Sequence record: MH051914
Strand: one strand, 5' to 3'
DNA length: 64,000 nt
Origin: Enterobacteria phage vB_EcoM_IME338
The position numbers and the translations under genes were made by a program. The notes below the pieces were generated by a model. That model worked only from the letters and a program-made list of their open reading frames with translations, was not told the origin of the DNA and ran no database searches. Positions 7,043-58,029 of this stretch are shown one piece after another (position 1 is the stretch's first letter; every line of letters starts with the position of its first letter).

Positions 7043-7063
7043 AAGACCAATTTAGGTCTTTTT
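7043..7063 (+). terminator. hairpin plus short T-run inside tRNA array (terminator or processing site)
   Basis: aagacc-aattta-ggtctt followed by ttt. Confidence 0.35.
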
Positions 7064-7142
7064 AGAGGGCTTCTAAGGTTATTACAGCTTGTTGTGGAAC
7101 CTTGTTGCTTAGGTTCTTAGAAGTTCTCTAAAAAGATTTAAT

Positions 7143-7219
7143 GCACCTATAGCCCAACTGGTAGAGGCAGCAGACTTAGAATCTGCTCAGTGTGAGTTCG
7201 AATCTCTCTAGGTGTACCA
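7143..7219 (+). tRNA. tRNA-Leu (anticodon TAG), class I-like short variable arm
   Basis: Acceptor gcaccta/taggtgt, anticodon stem gcaga/tctgc loop cttagaa, 5-nt variable loop, TTCGAAT T-loop, A73, CCA. Confidence 0.55.
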
Positions 7220-7226
7220 AATTAAT

Positions 7227-7302
7227 GCAGGTGTAGCAAAATGGTTATGCGGCTGACTCTTAATCAGTAAGACGATGGGTTCAATTCCCTCCACCTGTAC
7301 CA
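7227..7302 (+). tRNA. tRNA-Lys (anticodon CTT)
   Basis: Acceptor gcaggtg/cacctgt, anticodon stem gctga/tcagt loop ctcttaa, TTCAATT T-loop, CCA. Confidence 0.7.
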
Positions 7303-7308
7303 AACATT

Positions 7309-7384
7309 GGGGTCATAGTTTATATGGTTAAAATTCGAGTTTTGCAAACTTGGGAACTGAGTTCAATTCTCAGTGACTCCACCA
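7309..7384 (+). tRNA. tRNA-Ala (anticodon TGC)
   Basis: Acceptor ggggtca/tgactcc, D-stem gttt/aaat, anticodon stem cgagt/acttg loop tttgcaa, T-arm ctgag-TTCAATT-ctcag, CCA. Confidence 0.65.
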
Positions 7385-7390
7385 ATTAGT

Positions 7391-7465
7391 GCATCCATAG
7401 TTTAAACGGGAAAATTACAGTCTTCCAAACTGAGGTTGAGGGTTCGATTCCCTCTGGATGCTCCA
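7391..7465 (+). tRNA. tRNA-Gly (anticodon TCC)
   Basis: Acceptor gcatcca/tggatgc, anticodon loop cttccaa, T-arm gaggg-TTCGATT-ccctc, CCA. Confidence 0.7.
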
Positions 7466-7472
7466 AATTAAT

Positions 7473-7549
7473 GCTGCTTTCGTATAATTGGCTATTACAC
7501 ATCCCTTGTAAGGATGGAAATGCAGGTTCGAGTCCTGTGAGCAGCACCA
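7473..7549 (+). tRNA. tRNA-Thr (anticodon TGT)
   Basis: Acceptor gctgctt/gagcagc, anticodon stem catcc/ggatg loop cttgtaa, T-arm gcagg-TTCGAGT-cctgt, CCA. Confidence 0.7.
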
Positions 7550-7553
7550 ATTC

Positions 7554-7640
7554 AGAGGTCAAGTGAAAGACCGCTGGTGTCAACTGAAGACCGTAACAAA
7601 TTCCACGGAGTTGAGTTAGCGGCACAACTTCAGACCTCTT
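7554..7640 (+). repeat. inter-tRNA hairpin element, variant copy (CAGAGGTC...GACCTCT)
   Basis: 5' agaggtc pairs with 3' gacctct enclosing about 70 nt; same architecture as CAGAAGACC...GGTCTGG elements. Confidence 0.5.
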
Positions 7641-7644
7641 TCAT

Positions 7645-7719
7645 ACTCGCTTAGTTTATATGGTAAAACACCACCCTTACAAGATGAAGAAAAAGGTTCA
7701 AGTCCTTTAGTGAGTACCA
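7645..7719 (+). tRNA. tRNA-Val (anticodon TAC), weak anticodon stem; possible pseudo-tRNA
   Basis: Acceptor actcgct/agtgagt, D-stem gttt/aaac, loop cttacaa but anticodon stem only 3/5 paired, T-arm aaagg-TTCAAGT-ccttt, CCA. Confidence 0.35.
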
Positions 7720-7720
7720 T

Positions 7721-7799
7721 GTTCCAGTATCCCAATTGGCAGAGAGGCCAGACTTAAAATCTGTGTTATGTATCGGTTCGAATCCGATATGGAGTACCA
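7721..7799 (+). tRNA. tRNA-Leu (anticodon TAA), short variable arm
   Basis: Acceptor gttccag/atggagt (6/7 with wobbles), anticodon loop cttaaaa, T-arm atcgg-TTCGAAT-ccgat, A73, CCA. Confidence 0.5.
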
Positions 7800-7804
7800 A
7801 ATTT

Positions 7805-7880
7805 AGCGGTATAGCATAACTGGCAATGCAACAGTCTCTGAAGCTGTCTTATTAAGGTTCAAATCCTTATGCCGCTGCCA
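7805..7880 (+). tRNA. tRNA-Gln (anticodon CTG)
   Basis: Acceptor agcggta/tgccgct, anticodon stem acagt/gctgt loop ctctgaa, T-arm taagg-TTCAAAT-cctta, CCA. Confidence 0.7.
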
Positions 7881-7911
7881 CTTCTAAGGATTCTTACGAG
7901 AGTCCTTAAAT

Positions 7912-7987
7912 GTGGCCTTATCATAAATGGTAATAACCCATGCTGTGAACATGGTCTATACGGGTTCAAATCCCGTAGGTCACCCCA
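7912..7987 (+). tRNA. tRNA-His (anticodon GTG)
   Basis: Acceptor gtggcct/aggtcac, anticodon stem ccatg/catgg loop ctgtgaa, T-arm acggg-TTCAAAT-cccgt, CCA. Confidence 0.65.
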
Positions 7988-7992
7988 ATTTA

Positions 7993-8069
7993 TAGTCCAA
8001 GTAGCTTATATGGTTAAAGCGCGTGTCTGAAAAACATGAGAAGAGGGTTCAAATCCCACTGGACTACCA
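7993..8069 (+). tRNA. tRNA-Phe (anticodon GAA)
   Basis: Acceptor tagtcca/tggacta, anticodon stem cgtgt/acatg loop ctgaaaa, TTCAAAT T-loop; 3' end register uncertain by 1-2 nt. Confidence 0.6.
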
Positions 8070-8085
8070 ATTTCAAAGGTGCTTA

Positions 8086-8820
8086 ATGAAAGAGATGACA
8101 GAACAAGGTAAGGAGATTTTTAATCTCTTAAAAACCGGTAGAGGGTTTTCTAATCCCCTTATTACTGGTGCAGCAGTTCTCGGTGGAACCGTAGCTGCCT
8201 CTACATCACTTATAAGCTCTATTAGCTCTGTAACAGACCCTACAATAAAGGATAAACTTGTTGCTGCTGGACTGACAACAGTTCTGCTTAACAGCTTTAC
8301 AACGAGCCTGACAAGCACTACATCAACCACTAAGACATTGACAGACTACGGTCAAAAGTCTATTGATGAGTTTTCATCACGTATGCAGGTAGCAAAAGGC
8401 TATTCTAATGTTATGGGTGCAGCAGGAGAGCAAGTTGGTTGTACACCATTTAGTGGTATTATGGGTGTTGCTACAGAGTATGGTCAAAAAGCTATTGACA
8501 CAATTAACAGTGCACTAGATGGTGTTAATGATGTATTAAGCGACTTACAAGATGCTATTGATAAAGGTCTTGATACTATTTCTGATTTAGCTAACCAAGC
8601 TGTTAGCAAGATTAATGAAGGTATCTCAAAGATTACAGCTTATGCAGATGAAGTTGTGCAGATGATTGAAGAAGAAGCTGCCCTTATTGCAGAGTACCTT
8701 AAAACGAATATCAATGGGTTCTTAGCAGGTATCTTACCAGACTGGTTTGACGATGCTTGTAAAACTGGTGTAATTGATACTATTGCAACACCAGAAATGA
8801 AGAACGCATTACAGAAATAA
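8086..8820 (+). CDS. hypothetical Ser/Thr-rich protein with one hydrophobic segment, embedded between tRNA genes
   Basis: ORF 8023..8820 trimmed to ATG 8086 because upstream part overlaps tRNA-Phe; hydrophobic stretch PLITGAAVLGGTVAASTSLI. Confidence 0.5.
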   Translation: MKEMTEQGKEIFNLLKTGRGFSNPLITGAAVLGGTVAASTSLISSISSVTDPTIKDKLVAAGLTTVLLNSFTTSLTSTTSTTKTLTDYGQKSIDEFSSRMQVAKGYSNVMGAAGEQVGCTPFSGIMGVATEYGQKAIDTINSALDGVNDVLSDLQDAIDKGLDTISDLANQAVSKINEGISKITAYADEVVQMIEEEAALIAEYLKTNINGFLAGILPDWFDDACKTGVIDTIATPEMKNALQK

Positions 8821-8821
8821 T

Positions 8822-8914
8822 GGAAGATTAACCCTAAAAGGTAAGGGAGCAGTTTGCTAAACTGCCAGTAGCTGAGAAATCGGTGTACCAGTTCAAGTCT
8901 GGTATCTTCCTCCA
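8822..8914 (+). tRNA. tRNA-Ser (anticodon GCT), long variable arm
   Basis: Acceptor ggaagat/atcttcc, anticodon stem gcagt/actgc loop ttgctaa, long variable arm, T-arm accag-TTCAAGT-ctggt, CCA. Confidence 0.7.
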
Positions 8915-8918
8915 ATTT

Positions 8919-8994
8919 GAATCCGTGACAGAAATGGATATGTGCCTGTCTGCAAAACAGGTTTATAAGGGTTCGAGTCCCTTCGGATTCTCCA
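8919..8994 (+). tRNA. tRNA-Cys (anticodon GCA)
   Basis: Acceptor gaatccg/cggattc, anticodon stem cctgt/acagg loop ctgcaaa, T-arm aaggg-TTCGAGT-ccctt, CCA. Confidence 0.7.
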
Positions 8995-39382: not shown

Positions 39383-39939
39383 TCAATGTACCTCATACCA
39401 GCTCTTACCAACCTTTGCTGTACCAGTTACAAGTGTTTCTTTCCTCAAGCCTAAGTTTTTTGAAGCTTGCCCATACATCCAGTCAGCAATTGCTTTCATA
39501 TCATGTGTCATACCCTCTGGGCATTCCCAACTATTTTCGTCGTGATATGCCAGAAGTAACCTTGCTCCGATAGCTGGTTTTCGAGCATTCAGTTTTGTCA
39601 GGCCATCTTCACAGGCTTTTCTTGCTGCTAGGTTGATGGCTTCATTCTGAATCTGTGCTTCCGAACTCATCAGGAGGTAGTTCAGTAGTTTATGTGGAGA
39701 TTTGCACCATATCCATGCTCCAGCGACCCTGATATAACCACCTTTAGCAATTGAAGAGTTCTTCCCAAAAACCTCTTCCAGAGCCTTTTTAGACGCCTTA
39801 AAATCAGCTTCTAAGCTATCAAGTAACTTCTTAATCTTTGGTAAACGCATATAGTAAGTTTGTTTAGTCAATGCACCTTCTTCCGTAGATGATGCCTTGA
39901 TAGTTTTTGCAAACTTCTCATCGCCAGCCCCGAACAATA
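39383..39939 (-). CDS. DNA polymerase (family A, T7 gp5-like), exon 2
   Basis: Encodes motif B remainder FGAGDEKFAKTI and motif C LLAYHDE; ends ...WYEVH as in T7-type polymerases. Confidence 0.85.
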
Positions 39940-40207
39940 CATCTGGTCAATACACTCGCAAGGTGTACCAGTTCTCTTATGAACTTCTCCGCATTTCTAC
40001 GGAGTGTCGGACTATATCACGTAGCAGTGATGCTACCGTTGCACTTGGGGATGGTCATTAGCTTACCACCCTACTCTACTCAGTTCATACGTTAAGTATG
40101 CTTTTCGATAGTCTCTGAACGTTCCTCTTAAGAGGCTTCGCTGCTGATTACCATATCTTTCCAGACTTAGGCTTCCAGCAATTCACAACGTTTTACATGC
40201 GCCACTG
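39940..40207 (-). ncRNA. group I self-splicing intron (ORF-less, 268 nt) within DNA polymerase gene
   Basis: Exon 1 ends GCG U; internal guide GCGCAU pairs AUGCGU of exon; R-like GUUCAGAGACUA and S-like GAUAUAGUCCG elements; intron ends G; splicing restores AKNGIYALLFGAGDEK. Confidence 0.8.
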
Positions 40208-42350
40208 ACGCATAAATGCCATTTTTGGCTTTCTTACGACCTTTTGTAATCTCGTGAAGAAGCTCCTCATCCTGCGTCTCCCTACAACGAACAATATCAT
40301 CTTCCTTGTTTAGACCGAAGTAAATACTATTCAGTGTATGTGCATCAGTACCTGTGTAGACTTCGTAGAGGTCATTCTCAGCATCATAACGAAGATACTT
40401 ATCAGTTTCTGGATTGAGGTACTTATCGAGATGCTTGCAATAGTATCTTCCATCCTCTTGCTTGGTAAATTCTACTGACTCTTTACCTTCAGTTACCGCT
40501 TTGGTGAAGTCTTTATCACCCATAAAGTTACACAGTAAAACAAGCTGTGCAGAGTTCTGGTCAACTGAAACGATATTAGTCCCTTCCTCGCAAATCCACA
40601 CCTCCCTCATAGGTGCTCCATAGACAGCAGCACCAGACGGTACGTTTACAATACCATATTGTGTCATACGTCCAGTTGAAGTACCAAACACCATTGCACC
40701 AGCACTAAGGCGACCATCAGGACGAATCTGGTTCAACCAACCTTTTTCATCATCCTTTGAGTTCTCAATAGTTCTGCGTCGGTGCATCAAGGTATAGTAT
40801 TTCGCAATCTTCTGTCCAAGCTCACCTTCAATCGTATCATAAGATGATTCAGTAAGTTTTGGTGAAGTACGGATTAAGCAAGGCTCAAGCAAATCTGTGT
40901 ACTTCTTCACAGACCAGTTATGCTCAATGTACTGGACACCTTCGTGTTCAACATAACTCAAACCACACCGTTCCACCATCTCATCCCATTTAGGATGCTT
41001 TGTAATCATCTTTTTGTTGTCTTTGAAGCGACAAACCTTAACAGGACGACCATCAGAGTCTTTCTTATAGTTCCAGTCATCTGGAATCCAACCAACTGAT
41101 TTCAAGTAGTCTTTAACAACTGCTACCTGAGTCATACGAGAAACTTCGAACTCAATTGGTGTATATGGTGCATCAATCAAACCTGTGTAGCGACTTGACT
41201 CAAGTTCAAAGTGGTTAACAACATGACTGTTATAGTACTTCACAGTCTTAACTGTTTTTACTGGCTTCCAGTCTTTGCATTTCTTACCAATCTTTGCATT
41301 CAACTCATTGCAAATTGCACGAGCATCCTTCATTGCTACAAAGCCTTCCTTGTACTCTTCACCAGTTACCGAGTTGGTTGGTGTATAGCAATTCCGCTTT
41401 TCAATGTTAAAAATCTTTGTAGTTGGCTTACCAAATGGCTTGATTTCATATGTCTGCATCTCACCGTTACGTACCTGTTGACGATACTTTGTCTTAGGGT
41501 ACTTGGTAATTCTCTTCAGTCCATCTGCATGACCAAATGCTTCAACATACTCATTCCAAGCTTTTGCAAATTCTTCTCCAGTGACTTTACCTTTGGTCTT
41601 AATAGTTGGAGGAAGATGTGGTTCAACTTCTGAAGCAAGCTCGTTAGTCAACTTGTCAAGTTCCTTTACATGGAACTCCATAAGCTCTTTATCAGCTTTC
41701 CAACCATTGATAGCCTGTTGACTCATCCAGAAAGATGTTTCTTTAGCTCGCATGTAGGTTTCATAGGTGTCTACGCCACACTTCTTTAGCTTCAGATATT
41801 CATTATCCAATGCACGTTTAGTTTTGGCGTTAATACGGATATCTTCCACAACACGAGTGAAGATTTCTGCATTCCACACACCCCAATGTTCAATCTCTGG
41901 TTTACGGACACCAACACGAGCACCCCATGCTGCCAAGCCATGAGCACCTTTATAGCCTTTTGGAGTTGGTCTATCCATCCACTGAACACGAGACTGGATA
42001 AGAGAATCCTGAAAGAAATTACTCCACGGCTTACACTTTGGATTATCAAAGTTCCACAAATCGGGTGCAATGTGATTGAAAACCCACCAGTCATAACCGA
42101 GACCGTTATGGATGCAAAGACGTTTTGCCTTTAACGCAAATTCAACACCTTCACGTAAACCACCCTTAATGTACTTGGTATACTTGTGACCGAGGATAGG
42201 TTCATCTGTAAAGACCCATACAGGTGGCTCTTCATCGTCAGATTTATAGTCTGCGAAAGCCATTACGTGCACTTTAGTGAACTCAAGGAGTAAACCATCA
42301 GTTTCTGTATCACCAACTAAATGTAAGTTTTTAAAATCTACGTTTTCCAT
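40208..42350 (-). CDS. DNA polymerase (family A, T7 gp5-like), exon 1
   Basis: 3'-5' exonuclease motif LVGDTETDGL; motif A IVSVDQNSAQL; start of motif B RKKAKNGIYA; start set at MENVDF after GAGGGAG RBS. Confidence 0.85.
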
Positions 42351-42410
42351 TTTTACTCCCTCTAAAATCATTAACCTCATACATTACTGCAAAAAATTAT
42401 AAAAAGCAAG

Positions 42411-55535: not shown

Positions 55536-56732
55536 ATGAACAAAGTACAGATTATTAAAAAGAATGGCTCACTTGAAGAACCGGATATCAAAAAAGTTTT
55601 AACAGCAGTAACTAAGTCAGCTAACAGGGTTGGTTATAAAGAACTCCCACCAGATGTTATCCAAGCTCTTGAGTCAGCATTTATGAGGATTCTGGTAAAA
55701 TCCACTAAGCAGAATAACTTGCTCATCTCGGTAAATGATATCCACAGTATCGTTGAAGGTGCTTTGGCAGAAGTCAATCACGAGATTTATGAGTCTTACT
55801 CAACATATAGAAATTACCGTAAAGAAGTTGCTCAAAATTGGGATGAGCTTTACCAAAAGACCAAAGACACACTCTTCTTAGGTGACCGTGAAAATGCTAA
55901 CTTTGACAGCAGTTTAATTTCTACAAAAGGTTCAATTATTCGTGGTTACCTGACTAAAGAAATCTTTAAACAGTACCATTTAACACCAGAGGAACTTGAA
56001 GCCATTGAAAAAGGGTTTATCTACATCCATGACTTAAGAGACCTAATTTTTGGTGGTATCAACTGTTGCCTGTTCGACATTGGTAAAGTACTGAAAGGTG
56101 GCTTTGAAATGTCTGGCATCGAATACTGCGAACCTAAATCTGTGCTGTCAGCCTTACAGGTTATTGGTGATGTAGTTCTTTCAGCAACTGCACAGCAATT
56201 TGGTGGTTTTACTTTAGCAGAGATTGATAAGGTACTTGTACCGTATGCTAAGAAATCTCTACGCTATCATGCTGAGAAAGCAGCATCCTACGGTATTCCT
56301 AAAGAACATTACCACAATTATGTCATGGAGCAGCTACAGATTGAACTGACTCAAGGTTTCCAGTCACTTGAAATGAAACTAAATACTGTACCTTGTAGTC
56401 GTGGGGATTTTGCATTCACAACTTTGACATTCGGGTTACTTGACTCAGATATGTCCAATGAAGATAACCGACTGCAATATATAATTGCAAGTACTCTCCT
56501 AGATGTTCGTATGAATGGACAAGGTAAGAGCAAAAAGCCTGTTGTATTCCCTAAACTGGTTTATATTTATGACCAGAAGAGACATAGTGAGAATATCTGT
56601 CAAGGACACCTGTACAGTAAAGCCATTGAGTGTTGCTCTAAAGCAATGTATCCAGATTTCTTAAGTGTATCTGGTCATGGTGCTGTAGCAGAGGCTTTTG
56701 AGCGTTCTGGTAAGGTTATTTCACCGATGGGT
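55536..56732 (+). CDS. nrdD: anaerobic ribonucleotide reductase (class III), exon 1
   Basis: N-terminal ATP-cone; exon ends ...VISPMG, continued in exon 2 as CRAFL matching the conserved PMGCR(S/A)FL of NrdD. Confidence 0.85.
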
Positions 56733-57048
56733 TAACAAGCTCTATAGCTCATCTAAAACGTGCCTAAACAGGGAAACTCTACAGATGTAGACAATCCTGT
56801 GCTAAATGATGTACGATGTAAGAAACTATACAACATAGGAGTCTTACATGCCAAACAACTTCGAATATGAGTTTGAATACATCTAAATGCCGAACGACTA
56901 ACCGTGATGAATGTAGCGGTGTAGGGTCAAGCGACTCGAAATGGTACGCTACTTAGAAATAAGTAGAAGATATAGTCTGGACTTACTGGTGACAGTAAGC
57001 AGCTTGAATAAAGCGGGGTAAGTGTAGCGAACTTATCTGAACAACAAG
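56733..57048 (+). ncRNA. group I self-splicing intron (ORF-less, 316 nt) within nrdD
   Basis: Exon 1 ends GGU; guide GCUCAUC pairs GAUGGGU; P/Q-like CCUAAACAGGGAAACUC...GACAAUCCUGUGCUAAAU, R-like ACGACUAAC, S-like AAGAUAUAGUCUGG; ends G at 57048. Confidence 0.8.
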
Positions 57049-57996
57049 TGTAGAGCATTTTTATCACCATACCATAATGAAGATGGTGAAGAATTTTATG
57101 TAGGTCGCGCTAACATCGGTGCTGTATCTTTGAACTTGCCAATGATTTACCAGTACTCTAAAGAGAATGGTTTAGATTTCTGGAAAGAGCTTGATAAGTA
57201 CCTAGAAATGATTCGTAGCTTCCACAAGAAACGCTACGAAATGATTGCTAATATGCCAGCAAGTTCTAACCCTCTTGCATTTACACAAGGTGGTCTGTAC
57301 AAAGGGACTAAGAAACCTACTGACAAGGTTGGCTGGGATATCGTGAAGTCCTTCACAGCTTCTTTTGGGGTTACTGCTCTTGATGAGCTGTCTGTTCTTG
57401 CTGAAGGTAAACGACTTCATGAAGTTGGAAGTTCTAGTTTTGCATACGATGTTCTGGCATACATCAACATGAAAACTGAAGAGTTTAAAGATGAAGATGG
57501 CTTCTTATATGCCGTATATGGCACTCCAGCAGAATCACTTTGTGGAACTCAGCTAAAACAGTTCAGAGATATGTTTGGAGTTATCAAGGGTGTTTCTGAT
57601 AAAGAATACTTTACAAATAGTTTCCATATGAATGTTGCAGCAGATATCTCACCATTTGAGAAGCAGGACTTAGAAGAACCCTTCTTCCATATCTGTAGAG
57701 GCGGCAGAATCCAGTATGTAAGGGTAGCTAATCCAGAAAACTTATCAGCACTTAAAAGTTGTATTACAAGAGGGATGTTGAAAGGTTTCTATCAGGGACT
57801 TAACTTTGACTTAGCAATCTGTGAACATTGTGGTAACAGACCAAAGGCTGATGTTGAAGAATGTGAGGTTTGCCATTCACATGATATTTCTGTGATTAAC
57901 AGGGTGTGCGGGTACTTGTCATTCACAAAAATTAAAGGTCAGTCTCGAATGAATGACGCTAAGATGGCAGAAATTAAGGATAGGGTTTCTATGTAA
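57049..57996 (+). CDS. nrdD: anaerobic ribonucleotide reductase (class III), exon 2
   Basis: Frame open from 57028; CRAFLSPYHNEDGEEFYVGRANIGAVSLNLP; C-terminal Cys4 cluster and glycyl-radical motif RVCGYL. Confidence 0.85.
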   Translation, partial: CRAFLSPYHNEDGEEFYVGRANIGAVSLNLPMIYQYSKENGLDFWKELDKYLEMIRSFHKKRYEMIANMPASSNPLAFTQGGLYKGTKKPTDKVGWDIVKSFTASFGVTALDELSVLAEGKRLHEVGSSSFAYDVLAYINMKTEEFKDEDGFLYAVYGTPAESLCGTQLKQFRDMFGVIKGVSDKEYFTNSFHMNVAADISPFEKQDLEEPFFHICRGGRIQYVRVANPENLSALKSCITRGMLKGFYQGLNFDLAICEHCGNRPKADVEECEVCHSHDISVINRVCGYLSFTKIKGQSRMNDAKMAEIKDRVSM

Positions 57997-57999
57997 AAC

Positions 58000-58029
58000 T
58001 TGACAAGGTGGTGTAGGTCTTGATAGGCT
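58000..58029 (+). promoter_or_regulatory. sigma70-like promoter with ACTTGACAAGGTG element
   Basis: TTGACA 58000-58005, 17-18-nt spacer, ATAGGCT. Confidence 0.45.

Follow-up and report, generated by a model that had tools for sequence, protein, structure and literature searches.

Among the known systems closest to the intron studied here are introns of phage T4 and of Bacillus phages. The td intron of T4 belongs to subgroup IA2 of the group I introns, interrupts the gene of thymidylate synthase and encodes the GIY-YIG endonuclease I-TevI in the loop of helix P6a. The nrdD intron of T4 (sunY) interrupts the gene of the anaerobic ribonucleotide reductase and carries the gene of another GIY-YIG endonuclease, I-TevII, in the P9 region. 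The DNA polymerase introns of phages SPO1 and SP82 encode the HNH endonucleases I-HmuI and I-HmuII, and their homing begins with a nick and gene conversion. Surveys of the ribonucleotide reductase (RNR) genes of phages name nrdD as the one most often split (PMC3653736). Among Felixounavirus, the GenBank record of Salmonella phage Meda (MH586731) joins the nrdD exons around an HNH gene, the paper on phage SPJ41 lists 'two introns' among its ncRNAs (PMC9951933), and the paper on the BASEL collection states intron boundaries as annotated.

We analysed a stretch of 64,000 nucleotides from Enterobacteria phage vB_EcoM_IME338 (MH051914), called the window hereafter. The source phage belongs to Felixounavirus (Felix O1-like myoviruses), and its nrdD is interrupted at 56733-57048. 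The insert is of a familiar type, nearly identical relatives already have it annotated, and it opens no new question. The nrdD intron of SPJ41 is the same 316-nt form, with 97.2% identity to that of the window. What we add is a secondary structure that we verified, a demonstration that an HNH gene was cleanly deleted, the exact position of the intron at the codon of the catalytic cysteine and the coexistence of three allele states. In the literature searched we found no description of the deletion, of the Cys-codon site, of the fold or of the cross-lineage distribution of the nrdD intron, nor any published splicing evidence for a Felixounavirus. We read 56733-57048 as an IA2 group I intron of the clade of T4 td and nrdD, at the endonuclease-deleted stage of a mobile intron, whose splicing restores NrdD; we put the probability of this reading at about 0.93.

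The likeness to the T4 introns is of two sorts. With td, the window intron shares 66% core identity overall, an in-frame UAA at its start, the layout from P3 to P9.2 including P7.1 and P7.2, the GUGA loop of P9 and the P9.2 strands GGUAAG/CUUAUC. The endonuclease ORF of td also lies in the P6a loop, where those Felixounavirus that have the HNH gene carry it. Unlike the window intron, td sits in the thymidylate synthase gene, has a P2 helix and encodes a GIY-YIG instead of an HNH endonuclease. With sunY, the window intron shares the host gene, 70% core identity and the lack of P2. The guides are GCUCAUG in sunY and GCUCAUC in the window, for the 5' exons UAUGAGU and CGAUGGGU, respectively. Yet the insertion sites differ, since sunY splits T4 codon Y180, which corresponds to Felix residue 280/281 and not to 399/400, and its GIY-YIG ORF (I-TevII) is in the P9 region and not in P6a. 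The first-pass annotation of this locus, made from the letters, was right that T4 nrdD also contains an intron, but the comparison may mislead: the T4 insertion, with its GIY-YIG gene, is some 120 codons further upstream. We rejected the window intron as its orthologue, because both insertion site and endonuclease family differ. The BLAST matches had hinted at a chimeric intron, resembling sunY in its 5' half and td in its 3' half. This is unsupported as well: both halves are 66-72% identical to td, sunY and the introns of Vibrio phage F97 and Phapecoctavirus nieznany. With the SPO1 and SP82 introns, the Felixounavirus element has in common an endonuclease of the same family (I-HmuI_NUMOD-like plus HNH_3), encoded in each case by a group I intron of a phage. 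The genes interrupted and the lineages of the phages are different, and the endonuclease is absent from the window copy.

Boundaries of the insertion and the spliced product

The nrdD region (55536-58000) is 95-96% identical to that of many Felix O1-like myoviruses, e.g. Salmonella phage BPSELC-1. The gene order is nrdB, glutaredoxin, a small membrane protein, nrdD (as two ORFs), several small ORFs and nrdG. The interrupted gene is made of the following parts.

55536-56732, + strand: nrdD exon 1, 399 codons for the ATP-cone and the N-terminal portion of the NRDD domain, up to ...SPMG
56733-57048, + strand: group I intron (IA2, T4-type) of 316 nt, with an in-frame UAA at its start and a terminal G (omega-G) at 57048, identified by Rfam RF00028, covariation and fold
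57049-57996, + strand: nrdD exon 2, whose first codon, TGT, is that of the catalytic Cys (equivalent to T4 C290), with the glycyl-radical domain and the stop codon

The exon 1 ORF (55536-56735) ends in ...KVISPMG at a stop codon UAA made of the first three bases of the insert, and exon 2 reads TGT AGA GCA TTT from 57049, i.e. CRAFLSPYHNEDGEEFYVGRANIGAVSLNLP. Once the 316 nt of 56733-57048 are removed, the two ORFs fuse into a NrdD of 714 aa with an unbroken PMG/CRAFL motif. This protein covers positions 1-560 of the 562 of the Pfam NRDD profile in a single stretch, and also matches ATP-cone and Gly_radical. Its alignment with the class III reductases PDB 9d3x and T4 1h78 is free of gaps across the PMGCR(S/A)FL block (PMGCRSFL in 9d3x), and in the alignment with T4 1h78 the first Cys of exon 2 falls on NrdD residue 290. 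In T4 NrdD, C290 is the thiyl-radical cysteine of the finger loop. Hence, the intron is placed exactly between a Gly codon and the catalytic Cys codon. This has value for annotation: most Felixounavirus records give nrdD as two unrelated CDSs or as misc_feature, and it is a single gene for a 714-aa enzyme.

Intronless alleles are colinear at the junction, and both splice sites are thereby fixed independently of any RNA model. A query composed of the last 200 nt of exon 1 and the first 200 nt of exon 2 gave an unbroken match in many Felixounavirus genomes, including FO1a (a Felix O1 isolate), DR094, O157 typing phages and AYO145A. When five intronless alleles were read base by base, the exon flanks were found to abut with a 0-nt gap and to encode ...SPMGCRAFLSPY.... 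The genome paper of Felix O1 reports no introns, in agreement with the intronless allele of FO1a (PMC3185647).

The assignment to group I relies on several features. In a local search, Rfam RF00028 (Intron_gpI) matched 56675-56999 on the + strand over the full model (1-253), with E = 2e-13 and 55.9 bits for a gathering score of 50, a modest margin of only some 6 bits. The match ends at P9; the last 49 nt hold P9.1, P9.2 and the 3' tail. Besides this score above the gathering threshold, we found a P1 with a U.G wobble, an omega-G with P10, and the conserved core with its pseudoknot. The presence of P7.1 and P7.2 between P7 and the 3' strand of P3, together with a core identity of 66-72% to the T4 introns, places the intron in subgroup IA2. 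Over bases 152-311, BLAST gives 72% identity with the 3' portion of the td intron. A scan of the homologous loci with Rfam at the gathering threshold missed every ORF-containing homologue, T4 td included, and reported only the T4 nrdD intron and the ORF-less introns of phage S4-7 and of a phiKZ-like phage. Boundaries in the homologues were therefore set from exon alignments. By the same token, split genes of phage genomes that are negative in Rfam may still hold introns, since those with ORFs are missed at this threshold.

Everything that the first-pass annotation had observed stands. The nrdD frame breaks after ...VISPMG and restarts at 57049, as the ORFs and the translation of exon 2 confirm; the conserved PMGCR(S/A)FL block is restored, as seen in the gap-free alignment with 9d3x and T4 1h78; the insert has 316 nt, is preceded by an exon U and ends in G (G57048). 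The guide GCUCAUC (56747-56753) does pair with GAUGGGU (56726-56732), with the U.G wobble at the splice site, and the likeness to td that it had noted is confirmed by the BLAST match of bases 152-311. Of the checks that it had proposed, the covariance-model search passed the threshold (55.9 bits for 50), the structural comparison returned a full P1-P10 architecture supported by covariation, and the alignment of the spliced protein with NrdD yielded a complete NrdD.

Secondary structure and covariation

We numbered the intron 1-316, so that a window coordinate is the intron number plus 56732, and compared six introns: those of the window, Vibrio phage F97, Phapecoctavirus nieznany, phage phita32, T4 td and T4 nrdD. 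The 14 helices below were placed by hand. They follow each other in the same order in the six homologous introns and are bounded by conserved single-stranded motifs.

P1, + strand: exon GAUGGGU 56726-56732 with guide GCUCAUC 56747-56753 (intron 15-21); 7 bp, the last exon U paired to G
P10, + strand: guide GCUCUAUA 56739-56746 (intron 7-14) with exon 2 UGUAGAGC 57049-57056; 8 bp, present in the MFE fold
P3, + strand: CGUGCC 56759-56764 with GGUACG 56943-56948 (intron 27-32 and 211-216); 4 of 6 pairs compensatory
P4, + strand: 56768-56773 with 56795-56800 (intron 36-41 and 63-68); encloses P5
P5, + strand: 56778-56782 with 56787-56791 (intron 46-50 and 55-59)
P6, + strand: 56801-56802 with 56889-56890 (intron 69-70 and 157-158)
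P6a, + strand: 56808-56813 with 56878-56883 (intron 76-81 and 146-151); its loop is the site of the HNH gene in relatives
P7 (pseudoknot), + strand: GACUA 56896-56900 with UAGUC 56973-56977 (intron 164-168 and 241-245); encloses P7.1, P7.2, the 3' strand of P3 and P8
P7.1, + strand: 56902-56904 with 56917-56919 (intron 170-172 and 185-187); covariation
P7.2, + strand: 56924-56928 with 56933-56937 (intron 192-196 and 201-205); covariation
P8, + strand: 56949-56955 with 56960-56966 (intron 217-223 and 228-234); GAAA loop
P9, + strand: 56982-56988 with 56993-56999 (intron 250-256 and 261-267); GUGA loop
P9.1, + strand: 57002-57005 with 57011-57014 (intron 270-273 and 279-282)
P9.2, + strand: 57017-57022 with 57032-57037 (intron 285-290 and 300-305)

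In this hand-placed structure the window intron has no P2 helix, as is the case in T4 sunY. Helices placed by hand are chosen for their complementarity; independent support comes from the covariation in a MAFFT alignment and from the minimum free energy (MFE) fold. For the former, the ORF-trimmed cores of the six introns were aligned without structural guidance and the structure of the window intron was projected on the alignment. We used trimmed cores, and no covariance model of the homologues, because ORF insertions of 500-700 nt would break the matches.

Among these six sequences, which are few and related, standard pairs fill 95.7% of the 398 pair cells; sliding the 3' partners by 1-3 columns lowers this share to 34-43%. 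Compensatory changes affecting both sides occur in 34 of the 69 pairs, against 2-7 in the slid versions, and none of 500 column shuffles reached any of the observed pairing measures. The most informative helices are P3, P6a, P8 and P9.2. P6 and P7 (GACUA/UAGUC) are invariant in the six introns and hence uninformative; P7 is neither supported nor contradicted by covariation. P1 is retained in five of the six homologues on the MAFFT alignment, where td is misaligned. P10 is also misaligned there and hence stands outside the formal count. Its guide covaries with the exon context: exon and guide read UGUAGAGC/GCUCUAUA in the window, UGUAG/CUAUA in nieznany and, over 8 bp, UGCCGAUC/GAUUGGCA in Vibrio phage F97. 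The MFE fold of 56726-57056 (-88.8 kcal/mol, z = -3.2) recovers by itself P10, P3, P4, P5, P6, P6a, P7.1, P7.2, P8, P9, P9.1 and P9.2. The only helices lacking from it are P7, a pseudoknot, and P1, a competitor of P10. In the window intron all core helices are intact and none contains a non-standard pair.

Deletion of the HNH gene and allele states

The first-pass annotation had called the intron ORF-less and endonuclease-free. This is correct for its present state, but the short state is a derived one, and a relic of 12 codons remains.

56848-56886, + strand: relic of an HNH homing-endonuclease ORF, ATG CCA AAC/AAC TTC GAA TAT GAG TTT GAA TAC ATC TAA (MPNNFEYEFEYI and stop), identified by alignment with phages 35FD and Meda

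The sister phages 35FD and Meda carry at the same site a 742-nt intron with the homing endonuclease gene (HEG+), which aligns end to end with that of the window but for one gap of 426 nt. In its P6a loop, this longer form encodes an HNH protein of 154 aa (a 465-nt gene) that matches Pfam HNH_3 and I-HmuI_NUMOD-like, and the Felixounavirus HNH protein is 52% and 39% identical to those of nieznany and F97, respectively. What remains of the gene in the window are its first three codons, its last nine and the stop, with the ribosome-binding site AGGAG kept upstream. The deletion junction, at about 56856/56857, is in frame and shows a short AAY microhomology at its edges. The deletion is confined to the loop of P6a and spares both strands of the helix; the last codons of the ORF were retained because they form the 3' strand of P6a. 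Judged from these alignments, the ORF-less state is derived, by an in-frame deletion of 426 bp in an I-HmuI-like HNH gene. The junction is identical in the window, D1-2, momo and EC6, and a single deletion event is therefore probable. In phage momo a mutation has turned the start codon of the relic into ATA, which is what one would expect once an ORF is dead. The window copy thus lacks one mark of mobile introns, an intact gene for a homing endonuclease within the intron.

The remnant loop may be structured. In the MFE fold, AUGUAAGA (56815-56822) pairs with UCUUACAU (56842-56849), and the predicted stem (56815-56849) buries the start codon of the relic and leaves the AGGAG ribosome-binding site in the loop that it closes. 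In HEG+ relatives, the stem contains one mismatch. In T4, a hairpin limits the translation of I-TevI, and the stem of the window resembles it.

Intronless alleles, introns with the HNH gene and introns without it coexist in Felixounavirus. Approximate counts in the phage collection, duplicate and partial records included, are about 135 records for the intronless allele, 61 for the intron with the HNH gene and 93 for either intron form, which leaves about 32 for the ORF-less one. The HNH gene is thus retained in about two thirds of the intron-bearing relatives. The insertion site is identical to that of the window in other Felixounavirus with the intron (e.g. Meda MH586731, SPJ41 ON868915, D1-2, EC6, REP8), intron identity to the window is 95.6-98.7% among the matches listed, and the ORF-less forms share the deletion junction. 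Felixounavirus hence offer a convenient natural series (empty site, HEG+, HEG-deleted) in which to study the homing cycle, with coliphages and Salmonella phages that are easy to grow.

The coexistence of intron-plus and intron-minus alleles is accompanied by a flanking haplotype linked to the intron, a pattern that homing with co-conversion would produce.

57049-57102, + strand: intron-linked exon 2 haplotype, about ten fixed differences from intronless Felixounavirus; putative co-conversion tract

We compared twelve alleles, of which seven are intronless (five from Felixounavirus, one from Suspvirus and one from Mooglevirus). All seven differ in early exon 2 from all intron-bearing alleles, HEG+ and ORF-less alike. 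Relative to the five intronless Felixounavirus, the fixed positions are +3, +9, +18, +24, +26, +33, +39, +48, +54 and usually +12, and 8 of the 10 changes are synonymous. In the final 60 nt of exon 1, no position consistently separates intron-bearing from intronless alleles among the twelve. Local divergence is near 18% in the first 55 nt or so of exon 2 for a background of about 5%, which suggests that this stretch was imported with the intron by co-conversion; both this event and the homing that would have driven it we infer from the alleles. Substitutions that make intron-bearing alleles resistant to their own nuclease would leave an identical pattern. With the change at +3, from TGC to TGT, a C.A mismatch in P10 becomes a U-A pair.

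Exon 1 of Escherichia phage momo differs in another way. Between nt 700 and 1100 of its nrdD, a span of about 400 nt, it differs from the window at 9-20 positions per 50 nt, for some 2-4 elsewhere; this is a patch of mosaic recombination just upstream of the intron.

Proposed splicing and probable spread among phages

The self-splicing chemistry that we infer would proceed as follows. The transcript would fold into the P3-P9 core, whose P7 would bind an exogenous guanosine, and P1 (GAUGGGU with the guide GCUCAUC) would offer to this guanosine the U.G of the 5' splice site. The 3' splice site would next be positioned by P10 (GCUCUAUA with UGUAGAGC of exon 2) and G57048, and ligation of the exons at ...CCGAUGGGU/UGUAGAGCA would restore the 714-aa NrdD. 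The UAA in the first bases of the intron would halt ribosomes on unspliced RNA. With its HNH gene reduced to 12 codons, the window copy should be unable to initiate homing by itself, and could spread only by ordinary recombination or with the nuclease of a co-infecting HEG+ phage.

One may ask whether a group I intron by descent is still an efficient one. The HEG-deleted copy might splice poorly, and nrdD might be a pseudogene tolerated under aerobic propagation. In T4, nrdD is dispensable for aerobic laboratory growth, so that the viability of the phage is no proof of nrdD expression, and the window encodes the aerobic nrdB and a glutaredoxin immediately upstream. The HNH gene is already lost and its relic is decaying, as the ATA start in momo illustrates, the Rfam score is modest, and the self-splicing of the window intron is itself a prediction. 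Yet this reading is hard to reconcile with core helices that are all intact and without non-standard pairs, and with a deletion that falls wholly in the P6a loop and spares both strands. It is also at odds with exons that are open and full length in all five intron-bearing phages in which the whole nrdD was read, with differences in exon 2 that are mostly synonymous, and with the presence of the ORF-less form in about 30 independently isolated phages. We regard poor splicing with a decaying nrdD as quite improbable. In a 'gene in pieces', such as nrdA of Aeromonas phage Aeh1, a selfish insertion has split the gene, and each half is made as a polypeptide of its own, the two forming an active enzyme with no need of RNA splicing. 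This would suit the GenBank records, which mostly show two separate nrdD CDSs, and the announcement of phage Mushroom, which calls the homologous insert a free-standing homing endonuclease (PMC4392139), but it is excluded in practice. Exon 2 opens with the codon of the catalytic Cys, which is preceded by neither start codon nor ribosome-binding site: no ATG, GTG or TTG occurs from the last stop in frame, at 57025, to the Cys codon at 57049, and the first in-frame start in exon 2, TTG at 57130, comes 27 codons late and would drop CRAFLSPY with the catalytic Cys. The ribozyme fold, moreover, is complete, covarying and matched by P1 and P10 to both exons.

A splicing intron that has lost its endonuclease is the reading we retain, and its relatives with an endonuclease reach well beyond Felixounavirus. 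Phapecoctavirus nieznany, phage phita32 and Vibrio phage F97 have homologous introns between the same Gly and Cys codons of nrdD (MG/CR), and Vibrio phage 184E37.3a gives the same intron-to-nrdD BLAST match. In the first three, the ribozyme cores are 67-72% identical to that of the window, the I-HmuI-like HNH genes are kept in P6a, and P1 and P10 are retuned to each exon context, whereas the NrdD proteins of these phages are only 29-34% identical to that of the window. The contrast between the two ranges of identity suggests that the intron-HEG unit has spread horizontally, and that its target is conserved because it encodes the active site. This makes another case of active-site codons of RNR genes as hot spots for mobile introns.

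The picture might be extended, and here we lean only slightly in favour. The MG/CR intron and its HNH gene would be a single unit that has moved among at least four unrelated lineages (Ounavirinae, Stephanstirmvirinae, phita32-like phages and Vibrio phages), with P1 and P10 retuned at each move; Felixounavirus would catch all three homing stages together with a one-sided co-conversion tract in exon 2; and the sunY-like guide and 5' exon (UAUGAGU in sunY, UAUGGGU in the window) would allow an origin by switching of sites within nrdD. The introns at the MG/CR site have the guide GCUCAU(C/G) on (C/U)(G/A)UGGGU, near-identical to the P1 target of T4 sunY within one gene. On the likeness of these targets, a switch between the sunY and MG/CR sites by reverse splicing is conceivable.

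The records of these phages deserve a few remarks. In Vibrio phage F97 (OZ195764, extract 50-4184), nrdD is in at least three pieces, with two insertions that each carry an HNH gene, and the second insertion is at the MG/CR site of the Felix intron. In nieznany (extract 938-1700) and phita32 (extract 905-1667), the homologous IA2 intron with its I-HmuI-like HNH gene lies at MG/CR, and the HNH gene is annotated merely as 'hypothetical protein' between two nrdD fragments.

Rfam gave a second group I match in the window at 39987-40270 on the - strand (62.2 bits), between the minus-strand ORFs 40167-42380 (737 aa) and 39383-39937 (184 aa); this is presumably the ORF-less DNA polymerase intron reported for phages Mushroom and Meda. 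Vibrio phage S4-7 has two ORF-less group I introns in its DNA polymerase gene (extract 1365-1586 and 1958-2210, with 69 and 58.5 bits), and the gene is annotated as three separate CDSs. Elsewhere in the window, 4992-8991 on the + strand holds a dense tRNA array with 20 Rfam tRNA matches, typical of Felix O1-like phages; Felix O1 itself reportedly has 22 tRNAs.
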